Counted from the stretch's first letter, positions 16,620 to 34,097 are shown. The stretch is DNA of 36,046 bases from an uncultured Eubacteriales bacterium (GCA_964533555.1 CAZHMA010000001.1:1-36046), one strand, 5' to 3'. Made by a program: numbers and translations. Notes: a model not told the origin generated them from the letters alone.

Positions 16620-16628
16620 GGCGTCATC

Positions 16629-17357: not shown

Positions 17358-17368
17358 GCGCTCGTCGC

Positions 17369-19271: not shown

Positions 19272-19715
19272 CTAGCGCGTCTTGAGCGGCTTCGGGATCG
19301 CGCCCGTGGCGACGTCCTGGGCGTCTGAGATGACCCAGCCGGCGGCGTCTCGTCTCAGCGCGAACAGCGTCGCTGACGCCCACCCGGGGTGCGTCTTGTC
19401 GACGACCCAGACGACCACGACCTCCGCCCGGGCGGTCTCTTCCTTACTGACGTACGGCGCCTGCCATTCGGGGATCGGCGCCACCGTGGTTGTGGAGGCC
19501 TTCGCGGCGTCGGCGAGTGCGGTCGCCACGGCCGACTCCTCGAACCGCGGCGCGTACGAGGCCACGTCCTTGACCTGGTCGCGACGCAGCTCCAGCGCCT
19601 TCTGAACGGTCGCCGCGGCCGGGTCCGTGACCGTGGCCGCGGCACAGCCGGCAAGGGCCAAGACAGCGGCGGCCAACACCACCAGCGCGGATCGTGCGAC
19701 CCACGTCCCGGCCAT
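19272..19715 (-). CDS. small lipoprotein, unknown function
   Basis: The signal peptide has the lipobox LALAGC (MAGTWVARSALVVLAAAVLALAGCAA). The ATG at 19715 shares one base with the ccsA stop (TGATG). Confidence 0.65.
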   Translation of the reverse strand: MAGTWVARSALVVLAAAVLALAGCAAATVTDPAAATVQKALELRRDQVKDVASYAPRFEESAVATALADAAKASTTTVAPIPEWQAPYVSKEETARAEVVVVWVVDKTHPGWASATLFALRRDAAGWVISDAQDVATGAIPKPLKTR

Positions 19716-20554
19716 CAGAACCCCCTCATGTACGCGGCGTGTATCGAGTTGTACAGGATGGGCACCACGGCGAAGGAGAAGACCATGAGCGGCAGTGCCA
19801 AGATGAGGACCCACGCCGAACGCCGGTCGCGCCAGCCCAGTGTGAGCCTCAGGTGCAGATAGAGGGCGTAGACCAACCACACGACGAGCGACCACGTCTC
19901 GATCGCGTCCCAGCCCCAATAGCGGCCCCAGGACTCGTTGGCCCAGATGGCACCCGCAGCGATCATCACGCTCAGGAAGATGAGACCCACCGCCGCGAAC
20001 CGGAACGACAGCTCGTCCACCACCGGCTGGGAAGGCAACTTGTCGAGGAACGGCTTGAGGCGCCCGCCGCCGGATCGATCCCGGATCAGGTATGCCACGG
20101 CCAGCGCGAAGGCGACCACGAACGAGGAGTACGCCAGCCTCGCGAAGAGCACGTGCACCGTGAGCCACCAGCTCGCGAGCATGCCGGTGACGAGCTCGTC
20201 GGACTTGTCCGCAAGCATGGCCGCGCCGAGGCCGAGGAGCGCCACCGGCATGAGCACCATGCCGAGGGGACGGAACACCGGGCGCACGAGTGCCACGACC
20301 AGGAGCATGGCCACTGTGGCGAACGCGTAGGCAGATACGACCTCGTAGAACCCGAGGAACGGGGCGTGCCCGACCCGCACCCAGCGCACGATCGTGCCCG
20401 CCCCGTGCAGCGCCAGGCCGACGCCGGCGATCCAGGTTCCGGCACGCATCAGTCCGGCCCGGACGAACACGCCGCCGGCTATGAACGCCACGCTGGCTGC
20501 GGCGTAGACCAGCACCGTCGCCCACATCAGCACGATCTCGATGGACAGGCTCAT
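19715..20554 (-). CDS. ccsA: cytochrome c biogenesis (system II) haem-handling protein CcsA/ResC
   Basis: WWD motif WGRYWGWDAIETWS, conserved His residues and multiple TM helices. The ATG at 20554 overlaps the resB stop (ATGA). Confidence 0.88.
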   Translation of the reverse strand: MSLSIEIVLMWATVLVYAAASVAFIAGGVFVRAGLMRAGTWIAGVGLALHGAGTIVRWVRVGHAPFLGFYEVVSAYAFATVAMLLVVALVRPVFRPLGMVLMPVALLGLGAAMLADKSDELVTGMLASWWLTVHVLFARLAYSSFVVAFALAVAYLIRDRSGGGRLKPFLDKLPSQPVVDELSFRFAAVGLIFLSVMIAAGAIWANESWGRYWGWDAIETWSLVVWLVYALYLHLRLTLGWRDRRSAWVLILALPLMVFSFAVVPILYNSIHAAYMRGF

Positions 20555-21966
20555 GACGCCTCCTCCGAACCCGCTGCTGCGCGCAAGACCGCCTCGATCC
20601 GTTCGTGGAAGATCGGGTCGCGCCGGGCGTGCCAAACCCTCGCCCGCAGGATCACGGCGCCATCCTCTGTTGCGATGGTGACACCCACACGACGCAGCGG
20701 GGCGAGCACCGCCACGCCCAGACCGCCGACCGCGACCACAAAGATCCCGTATAGGAACGGAACGGACCAATCGTTCGCCACGGAGACGCTGGCCCAGTCC
20801 TTGACCTGAACCAGCCGCAGCCGTTCCCCGCCTGGCAGCGGCACGGTGTCGCCCTCCGCCACGACCGTCGACGTCGACGCACCGGATTCGGGCGTGAGCA
20901 CCTCGACGAGGGCACGGCTGCGTCCCGGCGTTTGAGTCGCGGCGACCGATGACGCTCCCGTGAGCACCTGAAGGCGCACCTCGACGGCGGTGCCCCCGGT
21001 GCTCGACGCCGCAACGAACGACTGCGGAACGGTTCCGCTCTCGGTGCTCGTACTCCGATCCAGGAGGAGCGTGCCGCGGGCGATCTCGCCACCGTACGGT
21101 CGCTCGACCGCGACGACGGCAGCGGGTCCGAAGTCGACCATGTGAACGAGCAGGCTTCCTACCCGAAGCGGGCTGTTGGGATACACGCGACCCGAAGCGA
21201 TCTCGTCTCCGTCGCGCCAAGCCGAGATACGAGGCGCAGCGCCATAGTCGACGTTGCCGACGCGATAGTGGCGGACGATGTCGGTAGCCACCAACTCGAT
21301 GCCCGTGAATCTCGCGCCGAACAGCGGCGACTCAGCGATGCTCCGGTAGTTGGCGCGCTCATCCGCGACGCGCTCGCCCTCTGGAAGGCCCATGACGCCT
21401 TCGGCGCGCGTCGCCTGTCCTGCGGCAGCGACCAGGATCAGGCCGACGATCGCCCAGTGAAAGACGGCGCTGGCCACCGGGCCGGCGCCCCCCGCCCTGC
21501 CGTACGCAAGGCCGTCTCCGCTGTCGACTCGCAGTCTCAGGCGCCGCAGACGGCGGGCCGCGTCGAACAGGACGTCTTCGGCGTCACGGGTATCAGCGAC
21601 CTGTAGCACGATCTGCGCGTGTTCCGTCACATGGCCGGCGAGACCCTCCGGCACTCGTGTCACCGACTGGATGGAGCGGCGCGCACGGACAGTGCGCTCC
21701 GTGGCGCATGCCGCGGTGGACGCGACCAGAAGCGCCATCGTCGCCATGAAGAGCGGCGACGCAAATCCTCTGAACAGGCCGAGCGGTCCGGCGATCGCGG
21801 CGGCAACCGGGTGCGCCGTGGACCATGTCCTCACTGAGGGGTCGGTTGCGGCGCCACGCGGCACCAGTGTGCCGATGACGGCGTAGGCGAGCAGTCCCGT
21901 GATCAGGACCGCCGCGAGGCGCCTGGATCTCAGCGCCCGCACAAGGCGCTTCCACGCCCCTGACAT
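20551..21966 (-). CDS. ccsB: cytochrome c biogenesis (system II) protein ResB/CcsB
   Basis: N-terminus WKRLVRALRSRRLAAVLITGLLAYAVIGTLVP, a large extracytoplasmic loop and a C-terminal TM. It is coupled to ccsA. Confidence 0.8.
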   Translation of the reverse strand: MSGAWKRLVRALRSRRLAAVLITGLLAYAVIGTLVPRGAATDPSVRTWSTAHPVAAAIAGPLGLFRGFASPLFMATMALLVASTAACATERTVRARRSIQSVTRVPEGLAGHVTEHAQIVLQVADTRDAEDVLFDAARRLRRLRLRVDSGDGLAYGRAGGAGPVASAVFHWAIVGLILVAAAGQATRAEGVMGLPEGERVADERANYRSIAESPLFGARFTGIELVATDIVRHYRVGNVDYGAAPRISAWRDGDEIASGRVYPNSPLRVGSLLVHMVDFGPAAVVAVERPYGGEIARGTLLLDRSTSTESGTVPQSFVAASSTGGTAVEVRLQVLTGASSVAATQTPGRSRALVEVLTPESGASTSTVVAEGDTVPLPGGERLRLVQVKDWASVSVANDWSVPFLYGIFVVAVGGLGVAVLAPLRRVGVTIATEDGAVILRARVWHARRDPIFHERIEAVLRAAAGSEEAS

Positions 21967-22487
21967 CAGGGCGTCTCCGGAGCGAGTGTGCCCACCTGGC
22001 TCGCGGGCACGGTAGCCGTCGCACTGATCGCCCTGACGTCGGTCACCTGCCAGGACCCGTCACCGACTCGTGTCAGGTCCCAAGACAGGTCGTAGACCAG
22101 GCCCTCCTGAGTCAGCACCAGCGCGCCCGTCTTGCGGGAGTAGTGCCTGTAGTCCCACGTCTCCCGGGTCTCAGCGAGCGCCGAGGTGCCCTCCACGCTC
22201 ACCTTGACGAATCTGAGGTCGCGCAGCGTCGGGTCCAACCGGACACCCCCCTCCGCGAGCGATGACATGTGTATGTACTCATCCTCCGCCTGAAGCTGGG
22301 ACGCCACTTCGCGCATGCCGTTCATGTTCAGCGAGCGATACCCGTCGGCGAGTATCTCGTCGTAGCGCTGGATCGTGGAGCGGATCGCGCGCTCGTCCGG
22401 GGACAGCGATGAGCAGCCCGCCAGCACGAAGGCGGCAAGCAGCAGCGCGGCCGTGAGTCGCCGGGTGCGAGCGATGACTAGGGTCAT
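21966..22487 (-). CDS. small lipoprotein, unknown function
   Basis: MTLVIARTRRLTAALLLAAFVLAGCSS has the lipobox LAGC. The stop shares one base with the ResB ATG (TGATG). I chose the start at the Met at 22487. The track ORF begins at 22529. Confidence 0.65.
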   Translation of the reverse strand: MTLVIARTRRLTAALLLAAFVLAGCSSLSPDERAIRSTIQRYDEILADGYRSLNMNGMREVASQLQAEDEYIHMSSLAEGGVRLDPTLRDLRFVKVSVEGTSALAETRETWDYRHYSRKTGALVLTQEGLVYDLSWDLTRVGDGSWQVTDVRAISATATVPASQVGTLAPETP

Positions 22488-22562
22488 TTGTTCTACCTCG
22501 TTCACGCCATGGGGCCGCGCGAGCATCATGCCACGCTTGGCGACGAACGCGTCAGTAGGGCG

Positions 22563-25500
22563 CTACCACGACTCGGCGTTGACGTTCGTGGACGACGCCG
22601 AATGCTGCCCACAGCTACGCTGACCGCAGTCGGCGGCCTGCCAGTTGATATCCGCTCGCTTGATGTACCACGTTAGCCAGCCGCCACGGGATCCTTGCGT
22701 TCCGCGGTTGCCCTGGCCATCGGCTGTGTACCGCAGCGGCAGGTTGCCCGGGTAGCCCGTCACGGTCGCGTCCTTGCCGGTTGCGCTCAGAAGTCGAGAT
22801 ACCTTGCCCCCATGTGGGACTCGGATGTGGCAGGCAACGCAAGGCTCGTTGTGGTCGCCGCGGGCGTGGAGATCCTGGCCCGAAGCTGCGCTGTCGATGT
22901 TGTGACAGTTACGGCAGAAGAGGCCGTCCGCGGTGTCCAGACTCGTGTCCCATCCGCTGTAGCCGGTCCCAGCCGCGGCCGTCGATTGCCGGAAGCCGGT
23001 CAGCGCACTCGAGCCGTTAGCCGCCGCGGTACTGTAGGGCCACGCCTGGTTGGGGCCCTTCAACATCCACTTCACGGAGCTCCCGTGTGGTCCGAGCGAG
23101 CCCGCGTTGCTCTCTGCGTGACAATCGGAGCAGTACATGGTGCTGCCGCGCGTCCAACCACCGTAAGAGACGCCCCCGACCGTGAACGCAGGGCGCAGCT
23201 GGGCGGCCTGGCTGAGCTGGCTCGACCCGTTCGCGCCGGGGTCCGTCGCCGGAAGTGCTGCGATGACCGGATGATAGGACTGATTGCTCGTGGAGAACTC
23301 GAGTCCGACATCGGTCCATGCCGTCGAACCCGTGCCGCCCCAGGTGATGAGCGTCGTCTGCCCCTGTGCACTCGTGTTCTGGTTGAATCCTGAGTGGCAT
23401 CGGAAGCAGATCTGATACTCCTTGGTGGCCGGATCGACCGTGGTGTACCCGGTCGGCGAAGTCCAGTTGCCGGTGGCGAGCGTCGGCTCTGCCCCCTGCA
23501 CTCCCTGGAGAGCGCCGGAGACTGCGTTGGTTCCGCGACTGTGACGCGTAGCCTGCGCGGCGTGCACATCGTGGCAATCGGCACACTCGACGTGGCGGTT
23601 GGCGCTCAGGTACGCCCTTGTCTCGTCCGTCGGCGACGGACGATGGATGCCATCGTAGCTGCCGACCAAGTGCGCCCATCCCCCCGAAGACGCCCATGTC
23701 CAGGGGATCGCGGTGGGCGCCCGCAGGTAGCCGGGGGCCGTGGTTCCCCATGAGTAGGTGAGGCCGTAGTTGCCGGCGGTCGTGACCGCGTTGGTCTGCA
23801 CGCCGAGGTCGACGACTATCTTGTCGCCCGGGTTGAGCGTCACAGCCACGCCGTTGGCCGTTGCGAACGTCTGCACCGTACCCGGAACCGCGGTGGTTCC
23901 CATCTCGGTGGTCGCGTATCGTTGCGCAGTCACCACGTCGGTCTTCGTGGCGTTGTCCGCACGCCACACGTATATGTAGTAGAAGACGTACGCGTTGGCG
24001 TTGGCGCTCGACTCGCGGTCAAAGACCGATACGTTCCAGGCACCCGCGGCGACGTTCGTGGTCGATGCCACCGGCGGCGAGACCAGCCGCAGCCTGCGCC
24101 AGTTCTGGGTGCCCGCAGGCACCGCGTACGTCGCGGTATCGAAGCTCTCGACCGCGACCGACGCCGCGCTCGGAGCCATGAGCCGCTGGGTGAACGCTCC
24201 GCTCACGTTGTAGTACGTGACACCCTGGTCGCCGGTCGGCGCGTTGCCGGACACCGATCCGTCGGTATTCGGACGGAAGTAGAGCGTCGCGTTGCTGGTG
24301 GTCGCTTGGGGCGTCCCGAGCTGCATGAGGTCGTAGATGTTCTCGGCCGTGACCGACGTGGCGATCATGTTGTACCAGTCGCGGCCCGCGGTCGCCTTGA
24401 AGCCGTCCGCGCTCTGGCTGTGGCACTTGTAGCAGTTGTCCTCCTCGTGCGGAGGCTCGGTCAGCGCCACGCCCATGGCGGCCAGGATCCGGCGCTGAGC
24501 ACTGTAGTGTGTGCTGAACTTGTTGACGGAGCTCTGGAAGCCGACGGTCTTGGTGCCGACCTCCATGCCGCCGTTGTTCGACTCGTCGTCGTGGCACTTC
24601 ACACAGTTGCCGTTGAACGTGGACGCGTCCGAGCCGAATGTCGAAGGTGCGGTGTAGTCGTGCGCGGAGACGTTGTAGCCGGCCGACGTGATGATCGGCA
24701 GGGTCGTGGAGTTGGTCTCCGCCTTCTGGTCCGCGTTGTCGCGCGTCAGCGCCGTGCTGTGGCAGCTCAGGCAGACGCCGCCGTTCACGTTGTTGTAGTC
24801 GGTGTTGGTGTCGTCCGCTGCGGTCGGCGTCGCGGCGCCGATCGTCGAGCGCAGGTTGCTGGCCCGCGTGTAGGTGCCCACGACGTTCGGGTCGAACAGG
24901 TCGTGGTCGACATGACACGACAGGCAGAAGACCTCCTGGCGGAAGTTCGCGTCGCCGCTCAGGGGATAGGTGAGCGTGTCGCCGCTGCGCGTGGCGTTGC
25001 CCATCACGTGATGGTACGACGAGGCACGGCTCGGGCCGACGGTGGCCAGAACGCTGTCTTCCATGTAGTTCTGGTACACGGTGTGGCACGTGTAGCACGG
25101 GATCTTGCCCTTGGACTCGCCGCCCGTCGGGTTGTGCACGTTGGCCGAGGTCGAGAGGGCGAAGTCATCGCCGTGGCACAGGTAGCACGAGTACGTGGTG
25201 TCGCCGACACGGTGGCCGACATAGGCCGGGAGCTTCAGCACGCCGCCCGTGCGCGAGATGCCGAGTACCTGGTCGGCGGGCAGCGCGACCGTGAAGCCAC
25301 CGGCGCCGTTGTACCCGGCTCCCGTGTCGGAGGTCGTGTGGCAGCTGAAGCAGAAGTTGCGCACGTTGCTGGCGGTCACCTGGCCGAGCGCGGTCATGTT
25401 GAGCTGGCCGGCGGTGGCCCCGACAGTGAGCGAGGCGCCGTTGAGCTGAGTCGGCACGAGGAGCCCGTATCCGTTGCCGGCCCCGTGCGGGTTGTGGCAT

Positions 25501-28500
25501 GCGCGGCACGGCACCGCGCTTCCGGCGGCCATCGTCCCGGCGGTCTTGGTCCGGTGGCCGTAGCGCGAGCCTCCGCCGCCCGCGGCACCCGGCAGCGCCA
25601 CTGACTGGACCGCTTCGCCGGTCACGCCGGTCGGGTAGTAGCGGGCGATGTTGGCGCTCGCCGCCGCGCCGCCGGTCCGGTGACACGCCAGGCACTGCGC
25701 CTCGTCAACCGTGTCGCTGTAGGTGGCCACGCTCTGCCCGTTGACGGACGTCTTGAGCAGGTGCACCAGGGAGGACCCATGCTGCTCGTGGCAGGTACGG
25801 CACGACACCGAGGCCGCCGCGCTGCCGTGGCCGTCGACGGCGTAGTTGGCGTCCACGTCCGCCGACGCGCCGGCGGTGACGGTCCACGGGATGAGCGTGG
25901 TTCCGTTGACCGTCTGGGTCGGCAACCCACCGTCATGGCACTTGAGACAGTAGACGTTGGCCGTGGCCGTGGTGGTCAGCGAAGCCGTGTTGTAGATGTT
26001 GTCCGGGTCCGCCGCGGGAACGGCGGCCGTGGCCGCGTGCACGTTGTGGCAGTTCTCGCAGGTGACCTTGGTGAGGTCGTGCTTCGAGGTCATCGCGAAC
26101 TCGGCCTGGGTCGCGTTCGCAGGCGCAGGCAGCACCGCGCCGTACGGCTGCGAGGTCGCGTTGTGACACTTCAGGCACGCCTCTTCGTGCGGCAGGTTGG
26201 AGGTGAACACGCCCAGCGCGCTCAGGATGCCGGCCGAGGCGCTCCAGTGGGTCCCGAACCGGTAGGTCGACGTCTGGAAGCCCTTCGTCTGCTCATCGCT
26301 GTGGCACTTCGAGCAGTTCGCGTTGAACGTCGATGTCCCGAAGCTCGACGCGACCGTGTAGTCGTGCGCCGACGCGTCGAAGACCGCGCCGCCGATCACC
26401 GGAGTGTTCGCCGCCCCGAGGCTGGCCTGATCGGTCCCCGGGTTCTGCTTGGCCAGCGAAGTCGCGTGGCAGCTGACGCAGATGCCCGTCCCGCCGGCGA
26501 TGAAGTCGGTGTTGGCCGTGCTGTTGCCCGCGGCGGCGATGCCGGTGCGCAGGTTCGCGCCCTTGGTGGCGTTGAAGTAGTTGTGGTCGGTGTGACAGCT
26601 CACGCAGTAGACGTCGGTCTGGGAGGTCGGGTACGAACCGAGCGTGGCGTTGGGCGCGATGTCGCCGTCGCCCAGGGCGCCGCCCATCACGTGGTGGACC
26701 GATGCTGCCCGGCCGGGGCCGATCTTGGGAGCGACCCCGTCCTCCAGATTCGTCTGATACGCGATGTGGCACGCGTAGCAGGGACCGCCGCCGGTCGACA
26801 CACCGCCGCTGGGGTTGTGCACGTTGTTGCCGGTCGGGCTGTAGTCGTTGCCGTGGCACACGTAGCACGACTGCGAGTCGGCCGCGTGGTGGCCGTTGAC
26901 GTCCGGAAGCCGAAGGACCTGGCCCGTGGTGGTGGTGACGCGGCTGATGCCCTCGACCTTGTCGGTGGCCAGGACGTTCGCGACCATCGCCGAGCCGTTG
27001 TAGCCCTGCGCGGTCGCATCGCTCGTCGTGTGGCAGACGAAGCAGTAGTTGCGGACGTTGACGGCGGTCGCCTGGTCCGTCGGGCTCATGCGGATCTGGT
27101 TCGCCGTGGCACCGACGGCCACGGTGTTGCCGTTGATCATCGTCCGCACCTGCAGGCCGTACGCGGAGCCCGACCCGTGCGGGTTGTGGCAGTCGTAGCA
27201 CGGAAGTGCGGAGCCTGCCGGCAAGTTGCCCGCGGAGCGCGTCTTGTGGCCGTAGCGCGTGGACGCGGTCTGGACCCCGGTGCCGCCGACGGTGGTCGGG
27301 AAGTACGCGCTCATGTCGCGCCCGGGAGTGCCGTCGTGGCAGTTGAAGCAGAAGCCGGAGTCGGCCTGGTTGTAGTGGTACTGGTCCGCGACGCCGGCGG
27401 CGTTCTCGGTACGCAGCTCGTCGTAGGTGTTGGCGGTCCCGTGGACGTCGTGGCAGTTCTTGCAGTCGCCGCCGGGGTAGAGCTTGCCGGGCCACGTGGC
27501 CGTGGCGGTGGTGTGGAAGCTGCCTGTGTGCGCACCGTTGGCGTCGTACGTCGTGGTGTACACGCCCTGGCCCGGCCAGGTGCCTGCGGTCGGGTAGCCG
27601 GAAGTGGTCAGGCTCGGCACCGGGAACGGCGCCAACGAGGTCGCGTGGCAGGCGTAGCACACCGTGTTGTCGTTGGCGGTCACCACGACGCCGTCGATCT
27701 GGCTGTTCTTGGCGACCCCGTCGTAGTCGCCGAGGAGCTTCGGCGCCTTCGACCCGTGCGCGTCGTGGCATATCAGGCAGGTCGTGGCCGAGTAGAGCGA
27801 GGCGTACCCCGTCAGCGACCAGTGCCCGCGCGCGGCGTTGGTGGACTTGTTCATGTCCGGCTTGACCATCGTGACGGAGACCGGCACGAACGTCGTGTCG
27901 GTGCTGCCGGCGACCGGCGTGGTTCCGTCATGACACTTCAGGCACAGCGCGGCCTCGTCGGACGACGTCCACGCGGCGAGCTTCAGCGTGTTGTCCGGGT
28001 CGGTGGGCGCGTTATTCGCCTTGGTCACGTGGGGGTTGTGGCAGCTCGAGCACTCCACACGTCCCGTGGACAGCGGGTGCGTGGAGACCATCGAGCCTTC
28101 GAAGTTCGCGTAGATGTACTCGGAGGGCGCGCCCATCGCATGACCGGCGCTTCCGTACACATCGAAGCCGTTGCCGGCCTTGCCTCCGGCCAACTCACCC
28201 GCGCGCGAGTGGCAGCGATAGCAGAACTTCTCCTCCATGGGATCGGCGACCGTCGCACCGAGCGCGGCCACGATCCGCCTGCTGGAACTCTCGTGCGTGC
28301 CGAACCGGTACGTCGAGGTCTGGTAGTCCTTGGCCTTGGCGTCGTTGTGGCACTTGGAGCAGTTCGCGTTGAACGTCGCGGACACGCTGAACGACGACAC
28401 GACCGAGTAGTCGTGCGCGGAGACATCGAACGCCGCACCGCCGATGACCGGGGTGATCGTGCTCGGGTCGGCGGTGGCCGAGTTGGCCGATGAGGCCTGG

Positions 28501-31500
28501 TTGGCCGTGTCCTTCGTGATCGCCGTGGAGTGGCAGCTCACGCACACGCCGTAGGTCCCGCCGGACATGAAGTCGGTGTTGGTGGTCGTGCTGCCCGCCG
28601 CGGCGATGCCGGTGCGCAGGTTCGCGCCCTTCGCCAGGTTGAAGTAGTTGTGGTCGGTGTGGCAGCTGACGCAGAAGACGTCGGTCTTCGAGGTCGGATA
28701 CGGGTCGGTTCCCGGTGCCAGGTCGCCCGTGTAGCTGACCGTGTCCGTGCCCACCACGTGGTGGTACATCGAGGTCTTGGCCGGGCTCGCCGCGTCCATG
28801 GTCTGGTACTGCGCGTGACAGGCGTAGCAGCCGATCGCGCCCGGTGAGACGCCCGGGCCCGGACGGTGGACGTTGTAGCCTTCCACGCCGTAGTCGTTCA
28901 TGTGGCACTGGTAGCAGGACTGCGCGTCCCCCATCGCGTGGCCGTTGACGACCTTGAGGCGCAGCCAGTTGTAGCCGCCGTCCGGCCCGGAGGTCGCCCC
29001 GCCGCCGGCCCGGCCGAGGCCGGCGACCTTCATCGTGTTGTTGACGACCGCGTAGGCGCCGCCGACGCTGTCCCATCCGTAGGGGGTCGCGTCGGAGGTG
29101 GAATGGCAGGTCAGGCAGAAGCGGCGAACGCCCGCGGGCCCGGCCGCCGTGCTCAGGTTGGCCCCGAGCGTGTCGCTGATCATCGAGGCGTTGCCGCGGC
29201 TCGAGCCGTGCGGATTGTGGCACTCGTAGCACGGCAGCGGCGCATTGACGGGCAGCGATGCGTCGATGGACTTGATCCGATGCCCCGAGTTCTCGCCGTT
29301 CTGTGCGCCCAGGTACGTGGCGAAGCTCTTGATGTCCGGCGCGCCCATCCGCTGACCGGTGTCATGGCAGGCGAAGCACGACGCGGCGTAGGTGCCGTTG
29401 GCGCGATCGTCCGCCACGGTGGCCGTGGTCGACGGGCCGTAGGTGGTCAGCAGGCTGTCGTACTTGCTCGGCCCGCGGTGCGCCGCGTGGCAGTAGAGGC
29501 AGTCGCCGTCGACCCGCACGTCCGGCGAAGTGGACGCCGGCATCAGCACGTGCGCGTTCTTCGCGCTGTCGTTGTAGACGCTCGCCCCGGGGAACGTGCC
29601 GAAGACCGGATAGCCCGAGGCGTCACGCGTCGGGGCGGCGAGCGCCGGATACGCGGTCCCGTACTTCTGCACGTACCAGTCCTGCGCGTCGTTGTGGCAG
29701 GCCAGGCACCAGGTGTTGTTCTGCCCGGTCACGTTGTTGCGGGTGACCGAGTTGATGGTGGAACGCCACAGCACCGGCCTGGTCTTGAAGTCCATGTGCG
29801 GGGAGTGGCAGGCGGAGCAGGCGTTGGTCAGGTCGCTCGGAGTCGTCGTGTCGACCAGGCTCTCCAGGGTGTGCCCGCTCCGGAGTGCGAAGGAGTTGGT
29901 GGCGCCGGTCTTGATGTTCGTCGTGGACCCGGATCCGTCGTGGCACGCGTAGCACAATGGGGCTTCGCCGGAGCCCGAGCCGAGCGCCGTGAACAAGCCC
30001 TGGTACGTCGCGGCCACGTGCACCTTGTGGCACGTCTTGCACATGCTGGTCGCGGTGTACGTCGTGTGCGGGGACGGCGTCCACGTGGCGGTGACCGGGC
30101 CGACGGCCGCGGACGGCGCCGACTCGTTCGCTGCCGCGTCGTACGCCGAGACCTTGTAGTAGTAGGCCTGCCCGGTCACGCCGGACGTGTCGGCGAAGGC
30201 CGTCGTGGTGGTCGTGCCGATGGAGGCGTAGGTACCGGCCAGGGTGGTCGAACGCCATACGCGGTAGCCGGTCACGGCCACGTTGTCGGTTGACGCGGTC
30301 CACGTGACGCGCGCGATGGTCGGCTCCGTGACGCCCACGCTCACGGCCACCGAACCCGGGACGGTCGGCGCCGTTGCGTCAACGCCGAAGCCCGTGAAGC
30401 CCTTGGTGGCCAGGACGTTGGCGTTGCCCGCCAGGTCGAGCACGGAGTGGCCGACCCCCGGGTCGATGGTGAGCGTGTACGCCGTGAGGATGCCCTGTGT
30501 GCTCGTCGTCAGGCGCACCGTCTTGTTGTCGGCCTGGAGCACCGCCGCGCTGACCGTGAGGCCGTTGTTCATGGCGAAATCGGAAGCCGCGATGCTGCCG
30601 CTCTGGAGCGCCTCGGAGAAGACCACGTCCACGCTCGTGGCGCTGAGCGCTGTGGCGGACACGATGGTCGGCGGCGTGTTGTCGACCGTGATGCCGGTGC
30701 GCGTGGCGGTGGTGGTGTTCGCCACGTTGTCGATCGCCCGCGCGATGAGGGTGTAGGTCGGGGACCCGTTCTGGCCGGCCGGGCTGAAGGCCCACGACAT
30801 CGTCCAGTCCGCCCACGCGTTGGCGGTGGACGCGGGGTTCCACGTCTGGCCGGCGGCCCATGTGCTGCCGGCGGCGTTCCAGTACCAGTTGTCGCCGCTG
30901 CGCTGGATCGACACCGCGACCGCGCTCACGCCCGAGCCGCCGGTGTCGACGGCCGTACCGGTGACGGTGTACGGCCCGGCGGCCGTGAGCGCCGCGTTGT
31001 TGGCGGCGGGCGCCGTGACCGCGACGGTCGGACCGCTGGCGTCGACCGTGAACGTGTTGCCCGCGACCGCCTGGTTGTCCAGCGCCGTCGCGCCGCTGGA
31101 GACCGAGAAGACGGCGCTGCGCTCGACGGCCCCGTTCGCGGCCGTACCGGAGATCACGTACACGATCCAGTACTTGGTGCCGTCGCTGGCCGGGAAGATC
31201 GGCGCCGGGATCAGCGAGACCACCGAGTCGGTACCCGTGAATGTCCCGGTGCCCATGAGCGTATCGGCCACGGTGTAGACGTTGTCGCCATTGTCCTGGT
31301 AGATGCGCACGCCGCTGACGCCGACCGCGCCTGAGTCACGCACCGTCACGAAGGGGGCGCTGAAGCTGGTGGCGCCCGCCACCCGCGACATGGTGAAGCC
31401 ATCGACCCAGACCATCGCGCCCGGCACGACGTAGGCGGCAGCGGGCTGGTTCACCGACTGCACGCGCAGCTTGGTCCCGAAGCCCGTGAAGGTCGTGGTG

Positions 31501-34097
31501 CTGGCGGCGACGATGGCGTTGCCGGCCGCGTCGGTGACGTTGTTGACGGTGATGGTGTAGAGGGTGCCCGGGTCCTGAGTCGCGACCGTGAGGCGCACCG
31601 TCTTGTTGTCGGCCTGCAGCGCGGCTGCGCTCACGGCCAGGTTCGGCCCCGTGATCGAGTAGTTCGTCGACGTGTTGGCCGTGGCGGCGGTCAGGTTCTC
31701 GGAGAAGAGCACGTCGACGTGCGTCGAGTCGACCGGCGTGGCCGAGACGATGGTCGGCTTGGTGTTGTCGATCGTGATGCCCAGCCAGCCGGCCGAGTTC
31801 GTGTTGCCCACGACGTCGGTGGCCCGGGCGGTGATCACGTACGCAGGGGACCCGTTCTGGTTGGCCGGGTTGAAGGTCCACGAGGCGGTCCAGTTGGCCC
31901 ACGCGTTCGCGGTGGTCGCCGGGTTCCAGGTCTGCGTCGACGTCCACACGCCTCCGGCCTGGTCCCACCAGAGGTTGTCGCCGGTGCGTTGGATGGTGAC
32001 GGCCACCGCACCCACGCCGGAGCGAGCGTCGCCCGAGGTACCGGTCACGCTGTACGGACCGGCCCCGGTGATCACCGCGTTGTTCGCGGCGGGTGCCGTG
32101 ACAGCCACCGTCGGGTTCACGGCGTCGACGGTGAAGATGTTGCCGGCCGTCGCCGGCACGCCGGCCAGCGTGTCGACGTTGGCGGTGGTCATGGCCTGAA
32201 CGAGAGCGGTGGCTGTGGCGCCATCGGTCGCACCCGCGGCGAACGTGTAGACGACGAAGTACGTGCGGAGCGTGGCGTCCACGGCCTCGGCGGCCGTGAG
32301 CGTGACGGGCGCGTCGGTGCCCGTGAAGGTGCCAGATGTGGTGTTGAGCTTGGTGTCCGTGCCGGCGTCGTAGGTGCCGTTGGCGTTGGCGTCCCGATAG
32401 ATGTCGACCGCCGAGACGTTGGTGGCGGGAGCCGTGCCGCCGTTGCGGATCGTGATGGCGCTGACGGTGGACGCCTTGGACCCGCTGCGCTGCATGGTGA
32501 ACGCGTCGACTGCCACGGACTGCGACCGCGCCACGAAGGCCGCGGCGGGGTTGGTCCCGTTGCCCACGGTCACGACTGTGGACGAGTTGCTGATCGTCAC
32601 GCCGGTGATCGAGGCCGAGTTGCCTGTGTGCGCGACCCCGTCAGTGGCGCGGGCGATGATCGTGTAGCTGGGCGTGCCCGTCTGGTTCGCGGGGTTGAAG
32701 TTCCAGGTGTACGACCAGCTGGTGGTTCCCGATGTCACCGGGTTCCATGTCTGGGCGGCCGCCCACGTGCTCGTCCCGCCGTTCCAGTACCAGTTGTCGC
32801 CCGTGCGCTGGATGGAGACGGCCACGGAGGCCACACCCACAGAGTCAGCCGCTGTGCCGGTGATGGTCCCGGGGCTGGCCGTCGTGTACTGGAAGTTAGT
32901 GGTCGGCGCGGTCACGACTGCGGTCGGGTTGTTGACGTCCACGGTGAACGTGTTGCCGGCGGTAGGCGGGACACCAGTCACGTTCGACGTGTTCGTGGTC
33001 ATCGCCACCAACTGAGCCGAAGCCGTGGCGGCATCAGCCGCAGTCGCCGAGAACGTGTAGACGACGAAGTACGTCCGTAGCGTCCCGTCCACTGCCTCGG
33101 CTGCGGTCAGTAGAACGTCCGCGTCTGTACCAGTGAACACACCCGATGTCGTATTGAGCTTGGTGTCAGTGCCGGCGTCGTAGACGCCGTTGGCGTTCGC
33201 GTCCCGGTAGATGTCAACTGCAGCCACCGTGGACGCCGGTGTCGTTCCCGGGTTCCGAACCGTCATAGTCCAAACCTGCGTCGCCTGCGTTCCGACCGTA
33301 CGCTGCAGACGGAAGGAGTCGACGGCGACCGCCTGTGATCGAGCTACGGCGGCACTGGCAATCGCGACCGCGCCGTCCGTCACCGCGACGGTCGAGGTGA
33401 AGGCGGGAGTGTAGTCGACCACGACGTACATCTCGGTGATCGACAGGGTGCCGGTCGTGCCGGTGTCGATTTGGATCCCCGCATTGAGCGTGTTGATGTC
33501 CGCCCACGTCCACGCACCACCGGCCGGACGTGCCGTGCTCGTGATGGAATAGAGGGCGTACGTGTCGGTCAGCGCCTGACCGGTGACCGTAGTTCCATTG
33601 GTCGTGCCAGTCCTCACACGCATACGGGCAGTCGCAGTGTTCCCGGTATCCTTCCGCATGCGGTAGTAGACAGTCACCGAATTGATCGTGCCAGCAATAT
33701 TCGTGTCCACCTGGTCGAGATTCATGTATAGCCAGCTGGCAGCGGTCGTGGTCTGGCCCCTGGTCGCGTCCCCGTCATTGGACCGCAGATCGGTCGTTGC
33801 ACTGCTCGACCATGTCCATGCCGCGTTCGCCGTGTACATGCCCGTGGGATGCAGCGACCACGTCGTAGCGGCGAAGGCCGAGAAGATGTTCGCGCAGGTC
33901 ACGGCCACGAGCACGGCCACCATGACCAGGGCGGTGATCGCCTTGCCGCGCCGGCTCCCCCAGACAGCCCGAAACAGGCTTGCGGGAACCCCGCTCACCG
34001 TATCGGAACGTGCACTACTAGAGGCCTGTGGTGCCGCTCGGTTCAAACGCGTCCTCCCGGCTGCTGCCGTTGGGGCACGGATGCGTCTATCACGCAT
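22563..34097 (-). CDS. giant secreted multihaem c-type cytochrome (3,844 aa, 45 CxxCH motifs) with N-terminal Ig-like/Big_5/FN3 surface modules
   Basis: One uninterrupted ORF. The N-terminus is Sec-type: RRGK, then AITALVMVAVLVAVTCANIFSAFA|ATTW. I hand-counted 45 canonical CxxCH motifs, many of them as CxxCHxxH (the doubled-CXXCH style). Two starts are possible. The ATG at 34097 lies 6 nt after a TAGAAT box, which suggests a leaderless transcript. The TTG at 34046 has GGGAGG 6 nt upstream. Confidence 0.9.
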   Translation of the reverse strand: MRDRRIRAPTAAAGRTRLNRAAPQASSSARSDTVSGVPASLFRAVWGSRRGKAITALVMVAVLVAVTCANIFSAFAATTWSLHPTGMYTANAAWTWSSSATTDLRSNDGDATRGQTTTAASWLYMNLDQVDTNIAGTINSVTVYYRMRKDTGNTATARMRVRTGTTNGTTVTGQALTDTYALYSITSTARPAGGAWTWADINTLNAGIQIDTGTTGTLSITEMYVVVDYTPAFTSTVAVTDGAVAIASAAVARSQAVAVDSFRLQRTVGTQATQVWTMTVRNPGTTPASTVAAVDIYRDANANGVYDAGTDTKLNTTSGVFTGTDADVLLTAAEAVDGTLRTYFVVYTFSATAADAATASAQLVAMTTNTSNVTGVPPTAGNTFTVDVNNPTAVVTAPTTNFQYTTASPGTITGTAADSVGVASVAVSIQRTGDNWYWNGGTSTWAAAQTWNPVTSGTTSWSYTWNFNPANQTGTPSYTIIARATDGVAHTGNSASITGVTISNSSTVVTVGNGTNPAAAFVARSQSVAVDAFTMQRSGSKASTVSAITIRNGGTAPATNVSAVDIYRDANANGTYDAGTDTKLNTTSGTFTGTDAPVTLTAAEAVDATLRTYFVVYTFAAGATDGATATALVQAMTTANVDTLAGVPATAGNIFTVDAVNPTVAVTAPAANNAVITGAGPYSVTGTSGDARSGVGAVAVTIQRTGDNLWWDQAGGVWTSTQTWNPATTANAWANWTASWTFNPANQNGSPAYVITARATDVVGNTNSAGWLGITIDNTKPTIVSATPVDSTHVDVLFSENLTAATANTSTNYSITGPNLAVSAAALQADNKTVRLTVATQDPGTLYTITVNNVTDAAGNAIVAASTTTFTGFGTKLRVQSVNQPAAAYVVPGAMVWVDGFTMSRVAGATSFSAPFVTVRDSGAVGVSGVRIYQDNGDNVYTVADTLMGTGTFTGTDSVVSLIPAPIFPASDGTKYWIVYVISGTAANGAVERSAVFSVSSGATALDNQAVAGNTFTVDASGPTVAVTAPAANNAALTAAGPYTVTGTAVDTGGSGVSAVAVSIQRSGDNWYWNAAGSTWAAGQTWNPASTANAWADWTMSWAFSPAGQNGSPTYTLIARAIDNVANTTTATRTGITVDNTPPTIVSATALSATSVDVVFSEALQSGSIAASDFAMNNGLTVSAAVLQADNKTVRLTTSTQGILTAYTLTIDPGVGHSVLDLAGNANVLATKGFTGFGVDATAPTVPGSVAVSVGVTEPTIARVTWTASTDNVAVTGYRVWRSTTLAGTYASIGTTTTTAFADTSGVTGQAYYYKVSAYDAAANESAPSAAVGPVTATWTPSPHTTYTATSMCKTCHKVHVAATYQGLFTALGSGSGEAPLCYACHDGSGSTTNIKTGATNSFALRSGHTLESLVDTTTPSDLTNACSACHSPHMDFKTRPVLWRSTINSVTRNNVTGQNNTWCLACHNDAQDWYVQKYGTAYPALAAPTRDASGYPVFGTFPGASVYNDSAKNAHVLMPASTSPDVRVDGDCLYCHAAHRGPSKYDSLLTTYGPSTTATVADDRANGTYAASCFACHDTGQRMGAPDIKSFATYLGAQNGENSGHRIKSIDASLPVNAPLPCYECHNPHGSSRGNASMISDTLGANLSTAAGPAGVRRFCLTCHSTSDATPYGWDSVGGAYAVVNNTMKVAGLGRAGGGATSGPDGGYNWLRLKVVNGHAMGDAQSCYQCHMNDYGVEGYNVHRPGPGVSPGAIGCYACHAQYQTMDAASPAKTSMYHHVVGTDTVSYTGDLAPGTDPYPTSKTDVFCVSCHTDHNYFNLAKGANLRTGIAAAGSTTTNTDFMSGGTYGVCVSCHSTAITKDTANQASSANSATADPSTITPVIGGAAFDVSAHDYSVVSSFSVSATFNANCSKCHNDAKAKDYQTSTYRFGTHESSSRRIVAALGATVADPMEEKFCYRCHSRAGELAGGKAGNGFDVYGSAGHAMGAPSEYIYANFEGSMVSTHPLSTGRVECSSCHNPHVTKANNAPTDPDNTLKLAAWTSSDEAALCLKCHDGTTPVAGSTDTTFVPVSVTMVKPDMNKSTNAARGHWSLTGYASLYSATTCLICHDAHGSKAPKLLGDYDGVAKNSQIDGVVVTANDNTVCYACHATSLAPFPVPSLTTSGYPTAGTWPGQGVYTTTYDANGAHTGSFHTTATATWPGKLYPGGDCKNCHDVHGTANTYDELRTENAAGVADQYHYNQADSGFCFNCHDGTPGRDMSAYFPTTVGGTGVQTASTRYGHKTRSAGNLPAGSALPCYDCHNPHGSGSAYGLQVRTMINGNTVAVGATANQIRMSPTDQATAVNVRNYCFVCHTTSDATAQGYNGSAMVANVLATDKVEGISRVTTTTGQVLRLPDVNGHHAADSQSCYVCHGNDYSPTGNNVHNPSGGVSTGGGPCYACHIAYQTNLEDGVAPKIGPGRAASVHHVMGGALGDGDIAPNATLGSYPTSQTDVYCVSCHTDHNYFNATKGANLRTGIAAAGNSTANTDFIAGGTGICVSCHATSLAKQNPGTDQASLGAANTPVIGGAVFDASAHDYTVASSFGTSTFNANCSKCHSDEQTKGFQTSTYRFGTHWSASAGILSALGVFTSNLPHEEACLKCHNATSQPYGAVLPAPANATQAEFAMTSKHDLTKVTCENCHNVHAATAAVPAADPDNIYNTASLTTTATANVYCLKCHDGGLPTQTVNGTTLIPWTVTAGASADVDANYAVDGHGSAAASVSCRTCHEQHGSSLVHLLKTSVNGQSVATYSDTVDEAQCLACHRTGGAAASANIARYYPTGVTGEAVQSVALPGAAGGGGSRYGHRTKTAGTMAAGSAVPCRACHNPHGAGNGYGLLVPTQLNGASLTVGATAGQLNMTALGQVTASNVRNFCFSCHTTSDTGAGYNGAGGFTVALPADQVLGISRTGGVLKLPAYVGHRVGDTTYSCYLCHGDDFALSTSANVHNPTGGESKGKIPCYTCHTVYQNYMEDSVLATVGPSRASSYHHVMGNATRSGDTLTYPLSGDANFRQEVFCLSCHVDHDLFDPNVVGTYTRASNLRSTIGAATPTAADDTNTDYNNVNGGVCLSCHSTALTRDNADQKAETNSTTLPIITSAGYNVSAHDYTAPSTFGSDASTFNGNCVKCHDDESNNGGMEVGTKTVGFQSSVNKFSTHYSAQRRILAAMGVALTEPPHEEDNCYKCHSQSADGFKATAGRDWYNMIATSVTAENIYDLMQLGTPQATTSNATLYFRPNTDGSVSGNAPTGDQGVTYYNVSGAFTQRLMAPSAASVAVESFDTATYAVPAGTQNWRRLRLVSPPVASTTNVAAGAWNVSVFDRESSANANAYVFYYIYVWRADNATKTDVVTAQRYATTEMGTTAVPGTVQTFATANGVAVTLNPGDKIVVDLGVQTNAVTTAGNYGLTYSWGTTAPGYLRAPTAIPWTWASSGGWAHLVGSYDGIHRPSPTDETRAYLSANRHVECADCHDVHAAQATRHSRGTNAVSGALQGVQGAEPTLATGNWTSPTGYTTVDPATKEYQICFRCHSGFNQNTSAQGQTTLITWGGTGSTAWTDVGLEFSTSNQSYHPVIAALPATDPGANGSSQLSQAAQLRPAFTVGGVSYGGWTRGSTMYCSDCHAESNAGSLGPHGSSVKWMLKGPNQAWPYSTAAANGSSALTGFRQSTAAAGTGYSGWDTSLDTADGLFCRNCHNIDSAASGQDLHARGDHNEPCVACHIRVPHGGKVSRLLSATGKDATVTGYPGNLPLRYTADGQGNRGTQGSRGGWLTWYIKRADINWQAADCGQRSCGQHSASSTNVNAESW
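22827..23585 (-). other. C-terminal 5-haem module (residues 3505-3757)
   Basis: Motifs: CADCH (CHDVHAA, the same module-opening pattern as in modules A-C), CFRCH, CSDCH, CRNCH, CVACH. Confidence 0.75.
23586..24419 (-). other. haem-free, beta-rich insertion of about 278 aa (residues 3227-3504)
   Basis: It contains no Cys-x-x-Cys-His. It is rich in T/A/V/G/N with alternating hydrophobic patterns (VFYYIYVWRADN, IVVDLGVQTN), which is consistent with a beta-sandwich. Confidence 0.6.
24420..26060 (-). repeat. haem module C (residues 2680-3226, 12 CxxCH)
   Basis: Motif order: CENCH, CLKCH, CRTCH, CLACH, CRACH, CFSCH, CYLCH, CYTCH, CLSCH, CLSCH, CVKCH, CYKCH. This is a shortened copy of A and B. 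Confidence 0.8.
26061..28052 (-). repeat. haem module B (residues 2016-2679, 14 CxxCH)
   Basis: Motif order: CSSCH, CLKCH, CLICH, CYACH, CKNCH, CFNCH, CYDCH, CFVCH, CYVCH, CYACH, CVSCH, CVSCH, CSKCH, CLKCH. The order and flanking residues match module A. Confidence 0.8.
28053..30041 (-). repeat. haem module A (residues 1353-2015, 14 CxxCH)
   Basis: Motif order: CKTCH, CYACH, CSACH, CLACH, CLYCH, CFACH, CYECH, CLTCH, CYQCH, CYACH, CVSCH, CVSCH, CSKCH, CYRCH. Confidence 0.8.
30093..30374 (-). other. fibronectin type III domain (about residues 1242-1335)
   Basis: APTVPGSVAVS...ARVTWTASTDNVAVTGYRVWRS...YYYKVSAYDAAANES is the canonical bacterial FN3 pattern. Confidence 0.75.
30384..33395 (-). 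repeat. three tandem beta-sandwich/Ig-like modules (about residues 235-1238); modules 2 and 3 end in Big_5/SbsA-type Ig domains
   Basis: The anchor motif (V)DIYRDANANG[VT]YDAGTDTKLNTTSG[VT]FTGTDA occurs at residues 295 and 565. A diverged copy, RIYQDNGDNVYT, is at residue 932. Each module then has FTVD..PTVAVTAPAANN...SIQR[ST]GDNWYWN...TWNP. Modules 2 and 3 add DNT[KP]PTIVSAT...VD[VL][VL]FSE.L...LQADNKTVRLT. Confidence 0.8.
33870..33959 (-). other. signal peptide / N-terminal anchor of the giant cytochrome (about residues 47-76)
   Basis: Positively charged WGSRRGK, a 23-residue hydrophobic core, and an AFA|A cleavage-like site. Confidence 0.6.

Follow-up and report, generated by a model that had tools for sequence, protein, structure and literature searches.

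Gram-positive bacteria have a wall tens of nanometres thick, and little is yet understood of how their respiratory electrons cross it. A stretch of DNA from an uncultured Eubacteriales bacterium (36,046 nt, hereafter the window, to which all nucleotide coordinates refer) encodes a single polypeptide with 45 haem-binding CxxCH motifs. How did such an array arise, and what might it be for?

The giant cytochrome and its parts

The gene occupies positions 22563 to 34097 and, like all other genes and protein features described here, lies on the minus strand. It is one uninterrupted open reading frame of 3,844 aa with a GC3 of 0.90; the public gene call (P0121) starts at V34 and gives 3,811 aa. The mature holoprotein would have a mass of about 417 kDa. 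A motif scan of the reading frame found the 45 CxxCH motifs, while the variants CxxxCH, CxxxxCH and CxxCK are absent. Motifs 1 to 40 occupy aa 1353-3226, corresponding to window 30041-24420, exactly where the original prediction had placed 40 consecutive motifs. The haem region does not end there, however. After a haem-free gap of 283 aa come motifs 41 to 45 (aa 3505-3757, window 23585-22841), on which the prediction was silent, and these form a conserved five-haem cap that belongs to the same design.

The first 40 motifs fall into three modules. Module A (aa 1341-2003, window 28089-30077) and module B (aa 2004-2667, window 26097-28088) carry 14 motifs each, while module C (aa 2668-3240, window 24378-26096) carries 12. 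Distances from first cysteine to first cysteine are 663 and 664 aa, and the last module spans 547 aa, so that both the sizes and the haem counts first proposed were reproduced. All cysteines of the three modules fall within CxxCH motifs. BLASTP comparisons gave 39% identity between A and B (E 2.7e-116), 40% between B and C (E 8.6e-118) and 34% between A and C (E 5e-74). In a MAFFT alignment the modules are collinear far outside the haem motifs, sharing the segments GANLRTGIAAAG, SAHDY, TFNANCSKCH and YRFGTH as well as 12 invariant histidines outside the motifs; the possibility that nothing but CxxCH is held in common can thus be set aside. The ordered signatures that had been proposed, taken as 13 literal patterns, stood in part: every match keeps the same order, but only six patterns occur in all three modules, the other seven being confined to two, several with a near-match in the third.

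Each cassette is itself composite. Profile self-alignment shows a two-haem periodicity, and the cassette is built from two-haem 'paired CXXCH' units that recur in the protein (TIGR01905, 53-75 bits against a cut-off of 25.2; PF09699, Paired_CXXCH_1, 57-91 bits against 20.6). The same block is common in long multihaem proteins of Geobacter. The cassette also splits into a nine-haem and a five-haem part, the former of which stands alone elsewhere. Module C is a conserved subtype that has lost exactly one of the two-haem units, the one between motifs 4 and 6, with the junction at motif 4 (window 25680-25694).

The sole hydrophobic segment of the protein is N-terminal (aa 50-80, ...RRGKAITALVMVAVLVAVTCANIFSAFA/ATT, window 33858-33950) and resembles a Sec-type signal peptide or signal anchor, which may be cleaved; the 3,844-aa protein contains no second membrane segment and no sortase motif. 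There follows a haem-free region (aa 77-1240, window 30378-33869) with no cysteine and four histidines; it contains Ig-like domains (Big_5, Big_7, Big_13) and three copies of a 270-360-aa super-repeat, 50-75% identical. An FN3-like domain (window 30078-30377) sits immediately before the first haem module, and many relatives have one at the equivalent position. Between module C and the cap lies a 234-aa insert (aa 3241-3474, window 23676-24377) lacking both cysteine and histidine, which is predicted, with low confidence, to be all-beta; it is common to L024 and corresponds to the C-terminal domain of the nine-haem proteins P0074 and P0080. The cap itself (aa 3475-3844, window 22566-23675) has about ten conserved histidines in addition to its five CxxCH motifs, and ends in a conserved CxxxxCxxH (window 22602-22628). 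Over residues 3474-3790, identity to the C-terminal ends of other members of the family is 30-58%. All of these members keep the cap, and its five CxxCH motifs are each retained in at least 98% of 162 caps.

A family of graded length

Nearly all matches to this protein come from Coriobacteriia or Actinomycetota assemblies, and they differ in the number of cassettes. Relatives carry one, two, three, four or five module copies, with 19, 33, 45-49, 60-61 and 75 haems, respectively. The haem count is therefore approximately 14n+5 for n modules, although totals such as 46, 49 and 60 occur. Among one-module proteins 19 haems is the mode (59 of 128). Some relatives have about 1.6 modules and 22-23 haems. 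One relative with four modules and 61 haems, WP_267192627.1, comes from Parvivirga hydrogeniphila. This Gram-positive organism is available in culture and is an obligate Fe(III) reducer (PMC9686372). Coriobacteriales with many multihaem cytochromes became enriched on an anode (PMC7399161).

Comparison of these proteins identifies the 45-haem protein as a giant c-type cytochrome of a '14n+5' family centred on Coriobacteriia and Anaerosomatales. The family blueprint comprises a signal peptide, an optional Ig-like/FN3 region, a 14-haem head, zero to four 14-haem extensions and the five-haem cap. Module A is of the head type, orthologous to the sole or first modules of relatives, including the single module of a common 19-haem family in Coriobacteriia/Anaerosomatales (e.g. 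P0007-P0055). Module B is of the extension type and lies nearest to the second modules of P0125, P0126 and L001. With two extension modules, the last of them the 12-haem subtype, the total becomes 14+14+12+5, or 45 haems.

The locus is as regular as the protein. One-, two- and three-module loci, the last represented by the window's own gene, have the genes for the NHL protein, the cytochrome and the lipoprotein in the same order, with B12-radical-SAM, UbiE and amidohydrolase genes further on. In tblastn searches with the window's neighbour genes this order was kept in L001, L003, L008, L015, L016 and others, and it includes ResB/CcsA downstream. Within the window, the NHL-repeat beta-propeller protein (34796-35788), which has an N-terminal membrane anchor, is upstream of the cytochrome; in many related loci its counterpart lies directly upstream. 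A 187-aa lipoprotein with the lipobox LAGC (21966-22529), for which a family search gave no match, lies downstream, as it does in 14 related loci. The System II cytochrome c maturation genes ResB (20551-21966) and CcsA (about 19715-20550) are directly downstream.

Could the three modules be a recent tandem duplication, or even an artefact of contig assembly? At the DNA level there is a stretch that suggests so. As had been predicted (copies near 28650 and 26560, a period of about 2.07 kb and a diverged third copy near 24900), a 148-nt segment of module A (28555-28702), encoding TDVFCVSCHTDHNYFN...GANLRTGIAAAG, is 87% identical to one in module B (26488-26635), at a spacing of 2,067 nt, and a third copy (CLSCH) lies at 24926. 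The spacing is 2,031-2,049 nt for other A/B pairs and 1,680-1,704 nt for B/C pairs. Within the 148-nt segment module A has module B as its closest relative, and 28 of the 32 identical residues use the same codon, against 19.6 expected. Over whole modules, however, DNA identity is only 56-60%, synonymous sites are saturated, and same-codon use at identical residues (177 observed, 156 expected) hardly departs from what codon bias predicts. Strong constraint or a short tract of gene conversion would suit the local excess; a recent duplication would not.

Phylogeny points the same way. Modules A, B and C were monophyletic in none of 100 bootstraps, whereas the split between head and extension modules was recovered in all 100, with A in the head clade and B and C in the extension clade. 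A 'last-module' clade and a 12-haem clade are present in the unbootstrapped NJ tree. Over some 650-700 aa, module A is 48-58% identical to first or sole modules of the family, and it is nearer to those of other species (50-58%) than to B (39%) or C (34%). Moreover, the architecture recurs in independently assembled relatives, namely P0125 and P0126 (both 14-14-12-cap), P0146 and L055. The bootstrap tree, the DNA and codon comparisons and the positional orthology of the modules together refute recent tandem duplication or misassembly, to which we assign a negligible probability. Since A is nearer to the first or sole modules of other species, B and C fall among extensions and synonymous sites are saturated, the copies are old; on the evidence of tree and codons, they are internal duplications that were later inherited with their positions kept. 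The proposal that the array grew by duplication of a cassette therefore holds, the cassette of about 660 aa and 14 haems being a real evolutionary unit present in one to five copies among relatives.

Haem ligation and comparison with known cytochromes

Across 123 modules, the 14 motif histidines and 14 further histidines are each at least 90% conserved, so that each of the 14 cassette haems has a conserved candidate distal histidine. No methionine reaches 90% in these modules, the best two columns standing at 72% and 61%. Motifs at module junctions are 39-57 aa apart here and 48-73 aa apart in relatives, within the 21-77 aa range found inside modules. An AlphaFold2 model was of moderate quality (pLDDT 71, pTM 0.66). 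Foldseek found no PDB match to the predicted fold, and PDB chains searched with the module profile gave no sequence match at E up to 1. By profile and predicted fold, the cassette appears to resemble no solved structure.

Several known systems share features with this protein. The filaments formed by OmcS, OmcE and OmcZ have the same proposed job, long-range electron transport along stacked extracellular c-type haems, but they are open-ended, non-covalent polymers of 4-8-haem subunits, whereas length here would be genetic, set by cassettes in one chain. Homology to them was rejected, there being no PDB sequence or fold match. In Shewanella, the decahaem proteins MtrA/DmsE and MtrC/OmcA move electrons across or at the envelope by chains of bis-His haems, though with an outer membrane and porin partner that a Gram-positive host lacks; membership of the MtrA/DmsE family was also rejected (TIGR03508, 46-51 bits against a cut-off of 192.2). 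Giant cytochromes of ANME/Methanoperedens archaea, which resemble the 45-haem protein by description in joining very many haems to non-haem surface-type domains, include fusions to S-layer domains. We know of no cassette arithmetic reported for them. They have 50 or more motifs and are inferred to cross a thick non-conductive envelope (PMC5520028). In the accessible part of a report on Desulfuromonadia, extracellular single-chain 'nanowire' cytochromes with up to 75 motifs are predicted (PMC11492766). These, too, are very haem-rich single polypeptides and predicted long wires, in another phylum with another cell envelope; that part of the report does not describe a 14-haem cassette series, a head/extension/cap design or syntenic copy-number variation.

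GSU1996-type cytochromes of Geobacter (12 haems in four c7-type three-haem domains; PDB 3OV0) are also single polypeptides of repeated homologous haem domains, and their domain number differs between paralogues. Their repeat, however, is about 80 aa with three haems as against about 660 aa with 14, while the protein studied here has a Gram-positive host, is some ten times larger and has distinct head, extension and cap parts. Each c7 domain has three haems, one of them His-Met ligated. Although PF14522 scored above its cut-off, a c7 polymer was rejected, as the 123 modules contain no conserved His-Met haem, 3OV0 is unmatched and the unit is 14 haems rather than three. GSU1996-type haems form a linear array, 3-5 Å edge to edge, and such single-chain arrays in the Geobacter dodecahaem proteins have been described as possible capacitors (PMC10138318).

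The present protein might similarly be an electron store rather than a conduit, its haems buffering electrons from respiration while an acceptor is out of range. One chain with 45 bis-His-type haems would suit that task, and the neighbouring genes include none for a partner reductase or oxidase; the window contains no quinol dehydrogenase or other cytochrome to feed a wire. Yet storage alone does not account for whole-number insertions between a constant head and a constant cap, for the positional orthology of modules or for Ig-like and FN3 domains of surface type, and we regard it as unlikely. Storage and conduit roles are not mutually exclusive.

The cassettes could instead multiply mineral-contact sites on a large-area cell-surface terminal reductase or adhesin, as in MtrC/OmcA or OcwA, with the Ig-like region serving to anchor or attach. 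The Ig-like and FN3 domains suit this reading, as do the longer non-haem N-terminal regions of multi-module relatives (Spearman 0.25, p 0.012, uncorrected for phylogeny). The last third of each cassette also matches, at domain level, the Pfam entry MtrC-MtrF_II-IV_dom (PF22113, 63-81 bits against a cut-off of 30). Against it, MtrC, MtrF, OmcA, UndA and OcwA, all of them represented in the PDB, were unmatched by sequence (E up to 1) or by fold. Every cassette haem has its conserved distal histidine, so no open site is evident, and junction spacing like that inside modules argues for one continuous array over separate reductase units. A reductase or adhesin role is accordingly rather improbable.

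A proposed covalent wire of encoded length

A haem wire for extracellular electron transfer, exported by Sec as a single chain, is the role that we consider most likely, and probable overall. The unfolded chain would cross the membrane via Sec, and haems would be attached outside it by the products of the adjacent ResB/CcsA genes. The cassette haems would then all be low-spin and bis-His ligated, forming one continuous chain without flexible linkers between cassettes. Electrons could hop along it between a partner close to the cell and an acceptor outside, for example an Fe(III) mineral, crossing the thick Gram-positive wall or reaching past it. The conservation pattern suggests that the protein as a whole has fixed interfaces at its two ends, the head module and the cap, while the extension modules look like spacers whose number would set its length. 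Solved haem wires advance 0.8-1.0 nm per haem; at that rate a cassette would measure about 11-14 nm and the full set of 45 haems about 35-45 nm. Two features sit less easily with this scheme: the long Ig-like region separates a possible anchor from the haems, which agrees badly with a model that simply places the head at the membrane, and the chain might be broken by the 234-aa insert without haems that precedes the cap.

We speculate, tentatively, that cassette number is a genetically encoded ruler of a covalent haem wire. Head and cap would be fixed input and output, the extensions interchangeable spacers of about 11-14 nm, and lineages might gain or lose cassettes to fit the distance between membrane and acceptor across the Gram-positive envelope. 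If so, the 19, 33, 45-47, 61 and 75 haems found at one syntenic locus would constitute a ready-made length series for following conduction against distance in a single protein.

The blueprint of head, n extensions and cap provides an annotation rule for the hundreds of proteins that at present carry the labels 'cytochrome c3 family' or 'hypothetical'. Having no solved structural relative, the cassette is a useful target for structure determination, and it is a potential building block for designed protein wires. To our knowledge, the haem wires described so far are of two kinds, single proteins that are short and polymers that are open-ended. This family represents a third design, a single chain that is lengthened or shortened by whole 14-haem steps while its end pieces are conserved. 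With one to five cassettes among Gram-positive Coriobacteriia, its members look like a naturally occurring series of 'electron wires' that differ stepwise in length, available from relatives, and the presence of one in a cultured obligate Fe(III) reducer makes the idea testable.

Three homologous haem cassettes in one polypeptide

The giant cytochrome is encoded by a single open reading frame of 3,844 codons (22563-34097, minus strand), whose third-position GC of 0.90 is like that of the adjoining genes. Its 45 haem motifs are all of the CxxCH form, with no variants among them. Motifs 1-40 span residues 1353-3226 (window 30041 to 24420), exactly where the original prediction had placed 40 CxxCH motifs. 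Motifs 41-45, absent from that list, lie at residues 3505-3757, beyond a gap of 283 residues, and belong to the five-haem C-terminal part that we call the cap. On the plus strand opposite the gene lie many long open reading frames, such as 25680-28493, that seem to be a side effect of high GC content.

The 40-motif region was cut into modules A (residues 1341-2003), B (2004-2667) and C (2668-3240), which carry 14, 14 and 12 haems. Their 28, 28 and 24 cysteines all fall within CxxCH motifs, and cysteine is absent from both the 1,264-residue N-terminal region and the 234-residue insert between module C and the cap. BLASTP aligns A with B at 39% identity (E 2.7e-116), B with C at 40% (E 8.6e-118) and A with C at 34% (E 5e-74). 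In a MAFFT alignment, the three are collinear beyond the haem motifs themselves, sharing long stretches outside these motifs and 12 invariant histidines that belong to none of them. This confirms the earlier observation of three tandem modules. The signatures said to recur in a fixed order were written as 13 literal patterns; six occur in all three modules and seven in two, and the order holds in every match.

The DNA copies expected at a period of about 2.07 kb correspond to a 148-nt A/B pair of 87% identity (26488-26635 and 28555-28702, spacing 2,067 nt), which is the most similar stretch between these modules. Further pairs are spaced 2,031-2,049 nt apart between A and B, and 1,680-1,704 nt apart between B and C. 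Whole-module DNA identity is only 56-60%, and equivalent modules occur in the related proteins P0125, P0126 and P0146 and at the related locus L055. On both grounds, we reject an assembly artefact as the source of the repeats.

Age, ancestry and copy number of the cassettes

A three-module profile matched 145 proteins in a word-indexed collection, and an exhaustive profile search returned 758 cluster representatives (260 at E <= 1e-30). Among species-representative genomes, 77 loci were matched. Almost all matches come from Coriobacteriia, Anaerosomatales or unclassified Actinomycetota assemblies. Module A shares 50-58% identity with first or sole modules in other proteins, versus 39% with B and 34% with C, its neighbours in the same chain. 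Likewise, B is 46-50% identical to second or internal modules elsewhere. Neighbour-joining trees place all first and sole modules in one clade, the head modules, and B and C in a second clade of extension modules. The split of A from B and C was recovered in 100 of 100 bootstraps, while monophyly of A, B and C, or a sister relationship between B and C, never appeared.

With fragments merged, a single neighbour-joining tree, built without bootstraps, sorts the extension clade by position and includes a clade of last modules before the cap. In this tree, P0125 and P0126 supply the neighbours of B (their second modules) and of C (their 12-haem third modules), and the second module of P0146 also groups with C. 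The 12-haem subtype is also present at L055, at 56-66% identity. A separate triplication has occurred within one lineage (L043/P0129).

The growth by cassette duplication originally proposed therefore stands as regards duplication, with the qualification that these are old copies conserved in position. Synonymous sites are saturated, since same-codon use at identical A/B residues (177 observed) is close to the 156 expected from codon bias. A recent tandem duplication is rejected because of this saturation, and because A, B and C never form a monophyletic group. Within the 148-nt A/B pair, the same codon occurs at 28 of 32 identical residues against 19.6 expected from codon bias, and the nearest relative of A is B rather than the orthologues of A. 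This weak local signal would be consistent with a possible short gene-conversion tract (26488-26635 / 28555-28702).

Haem motifs were tallied in complete proteins carrying the cap. One-module proteins have a mode of 19 haems (59 of 128 proteins), and seven two-module proteins have 33. Three modules give 45, 46, 47 or 49 haems, four give 60 or 61, and five give 75 (three proteins). Haem number is thus about 14n+5, an approximate rule rather than an exact one, with exceptions such as proteins of around 1.6 modules and 22-23 haems. With only 12 haems in module C, the giant cytochrome totals 45. Stand-alone nine-haem proteins, matching only the first 420 profile positions, also exist.

The non-haem parts of these proteins vary as well. 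The non-haem N-terminal region is generally longer in relatives that carry more cassettes (Spearman 0.25, p 0.012, with no phylogenetic correction), the median rising from 14 residues with one module to 152 with two and about 820 with three; P0125 and P0126, which have 45 haems, lack such a region. In the giant cytochrome, this haem-free region has its own repeats of Ig-like domains (30378-33400, residues ~234-1240), with three blocks at residues 234-505, 505-880 and 884-1240. Each block spans 270-360 residues, and the copies are 50-75% identical. As they are far more alike among themselves than the haem modules are, they are probably younger. The insert (23676-24377, minus strand, residues 3241-3474) lacks both cysteine and histidine. 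It is missing from most relatives, is present at L024, and corresponds to the C-terminal domain of the nine-haem proteins P0074 and P0080 (43-47% identity). AlphaFold2 predicts it to be all-beta, at a pLDDT of 44 that is too poor for a fold search.

Haem ligation, internal periodicity and structural resemblance

In an alignment of 123 modules, conservation of 90% or more is seen at 14 motif histidines and at another 14 histidines, and no methionine reaches that level. All 14 cassette haems can consequently be bis-histidine ligated. The cap combines its five motifs with about 10 conserved extra histidines. We also considered a catalytic haem, and rejected it: the giant cytochrome has no CxxCK motif that would be a sign of one, and aligned modules and caps provide a conserved distal histidine for every haem. 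At the far C-terminus lies a CxxxxCxxH sequence (CGQRSCGQH; 22602-22628, residues 3824-3832) that 81-87% of 162 caps retain; it could form a disulfide, bind a metal or serve as an unusual haem site.

Steps between successive motifs are nearly fixed, at about 29, 44, 35, 68, 41, 50, 38, 60, 29, 55, 43, 57 and 46 residues. Across a module junction, the step between the two flanking motifs is 39-57 residues in the giant cytochrome and 48-73 in relatives. Such junctions are no longer than the gaps within modules, which argues for one continuous array and against flexible linkers.

The cassette itself is internally periodic. Profile self-alignment gives shifted matches at about 75, 172, 272 and 374 residues (96-99% probability). 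Odd-numbered haems are mostly CxxCHxxH, and even-numbered ones CxxCH followed by D, N or S. These pairs are the paired-CXXCH unit (TIGR01905, PF09699), for this substructure the only curated family above cut-off. Between motifs 4 and 6, module C has lost a single paired unit: motifs C1-2 and B1-2 have DPDN, CLKCHDG and TT[FL][VI]P.[ST]VT in common, C3 resembles B3, and the sequence past C4 matches that past B6. BLAST and the 123-module MAFFT alignment instead leave C without haems 1-2; this reading is rejected on the flank signatures in the three sequences and their own MAFFT alignment, and we attribute the one-pair slide to internal periodicity.

A structural model of one cassette, as earlier suggested, could be made for module A at moderate confidence (AlphaFold2, pLDDT 71.4, pTM 0.66), and Foldseek with this model found no fold match in the PDB, even at E <= 10. 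By sequence, the module profile retrieved from the PDB only noise (reaction-centre cytochromes at E 0.3-0.45), and the cap retrieved nothing. The MtrA/DmsE profile scores 46-51 bits, where its cut-off is 192. MtrC/MtrF domain II/IV and c7 Pfam models do exceed their cut-offs, a domain-level resemblance only, since no solved member matches. In kind, the nearest counterpart is GSU1996, whose single chain comprises four domains of three haems each and forms a linear haem array (PMC10138318). The long single-chain 'nanowire' cytochromes that have been predicted in Desulfuromonadia (PMC11492766) come close as well.

Gene neighbourhood and putative role

All genes adjoining the giant cytochrome lie on the minus strand. 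Upstream are a TPR protein and a membrane-anchored NHL beta-propeller (34796-35788), the latter flanking the cytochrome at 25 related loci. Downstream lie a 187-residue lipoprotein of no family (21966-22529), flanking it at 14 related loci, and ResB (20551-21966) and CcsA (longest reading frame 19715-21220) of System II cytochrome c maturation. The propeller and lipoprotein are candidate docking or assembly partners. The longest CcsA frame overlaps ResB by ~670 nt, and its true start is probably just past the ResB stop, since the Pfam domain begins only at residue 299. Further downstream (15258-19147), a B12-binding radical-SAM protein, a UbiE-type methyltransferase and an amidohydrolase follow. 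The first and last are 63-73% identical across related loci, in the same order and far above cytochrome conservation; a link of this group to quinone biosynthesis is a guess. Beyond these genes come tatC, a cobW-family gene and topA, tmk and holB, the last three in an order typical of Actinomycetota. The window contains no second CxxCH-bearing reading frame. The same gene order surrounds one-module proteins (L003, L008, L015, L021, L054) and two-module proteins (L001, L016), so the number of modules varies from one orthologous locus to another.

Very haem-rich reading frames without a cassette match also occur among the loci retrieved: a 2,002-residue, 50-motif frame adjoining the family member at L014 (562-6567), and, at L069, L071, L073, L075 and L077, 42-motif frames of ~1,050-1,240 residues in Eisenbacteria, Zixibacteria, Gemmatimonadota and Ignavibacteria assemblies.

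One relative, P0122 (WP_267192627.1; 4,629 residues, four modules, 61 haems), belongs to Parvivirga hydrogeniphila Es71-Z0120, a cultured Gram-positive obligate Fe(III) reducer (PMC9686372, a paper in whose main text this protein is not discussed). Coriobacteriales rich in multihaem cytochromes have been enriched on an anode (PMC7399161), and large cytochromes noted in subsurface Actinobacteria (PMC5520028). Our searches of the literature on giant multiheme cytochromes and on particular haem counts found no published account of this cassette series.

The giant cytochrome has a single hydrophobic segment, at the N-terminus (residues 50-80), no sortase signal, and a computed mature holoprotein mass of ~417 kDa. 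It would be exported by Sec and receive its haems from ResB/CcsA, and these may then form a continuous bis-histidine chain. From the per-haem rises of solved wires, one cassette would measure 11-14 nm, and it might be a rod segment with defined entry and exit haems, as first suggested. Among single-chain modular haem wires, already known as a class, the protein is a well-defined, new form. Its role is probably extracellular electron transfer, in which head module and cap would act as fixed interfaces, and extension cassettes as spacers that set the length of the wire.
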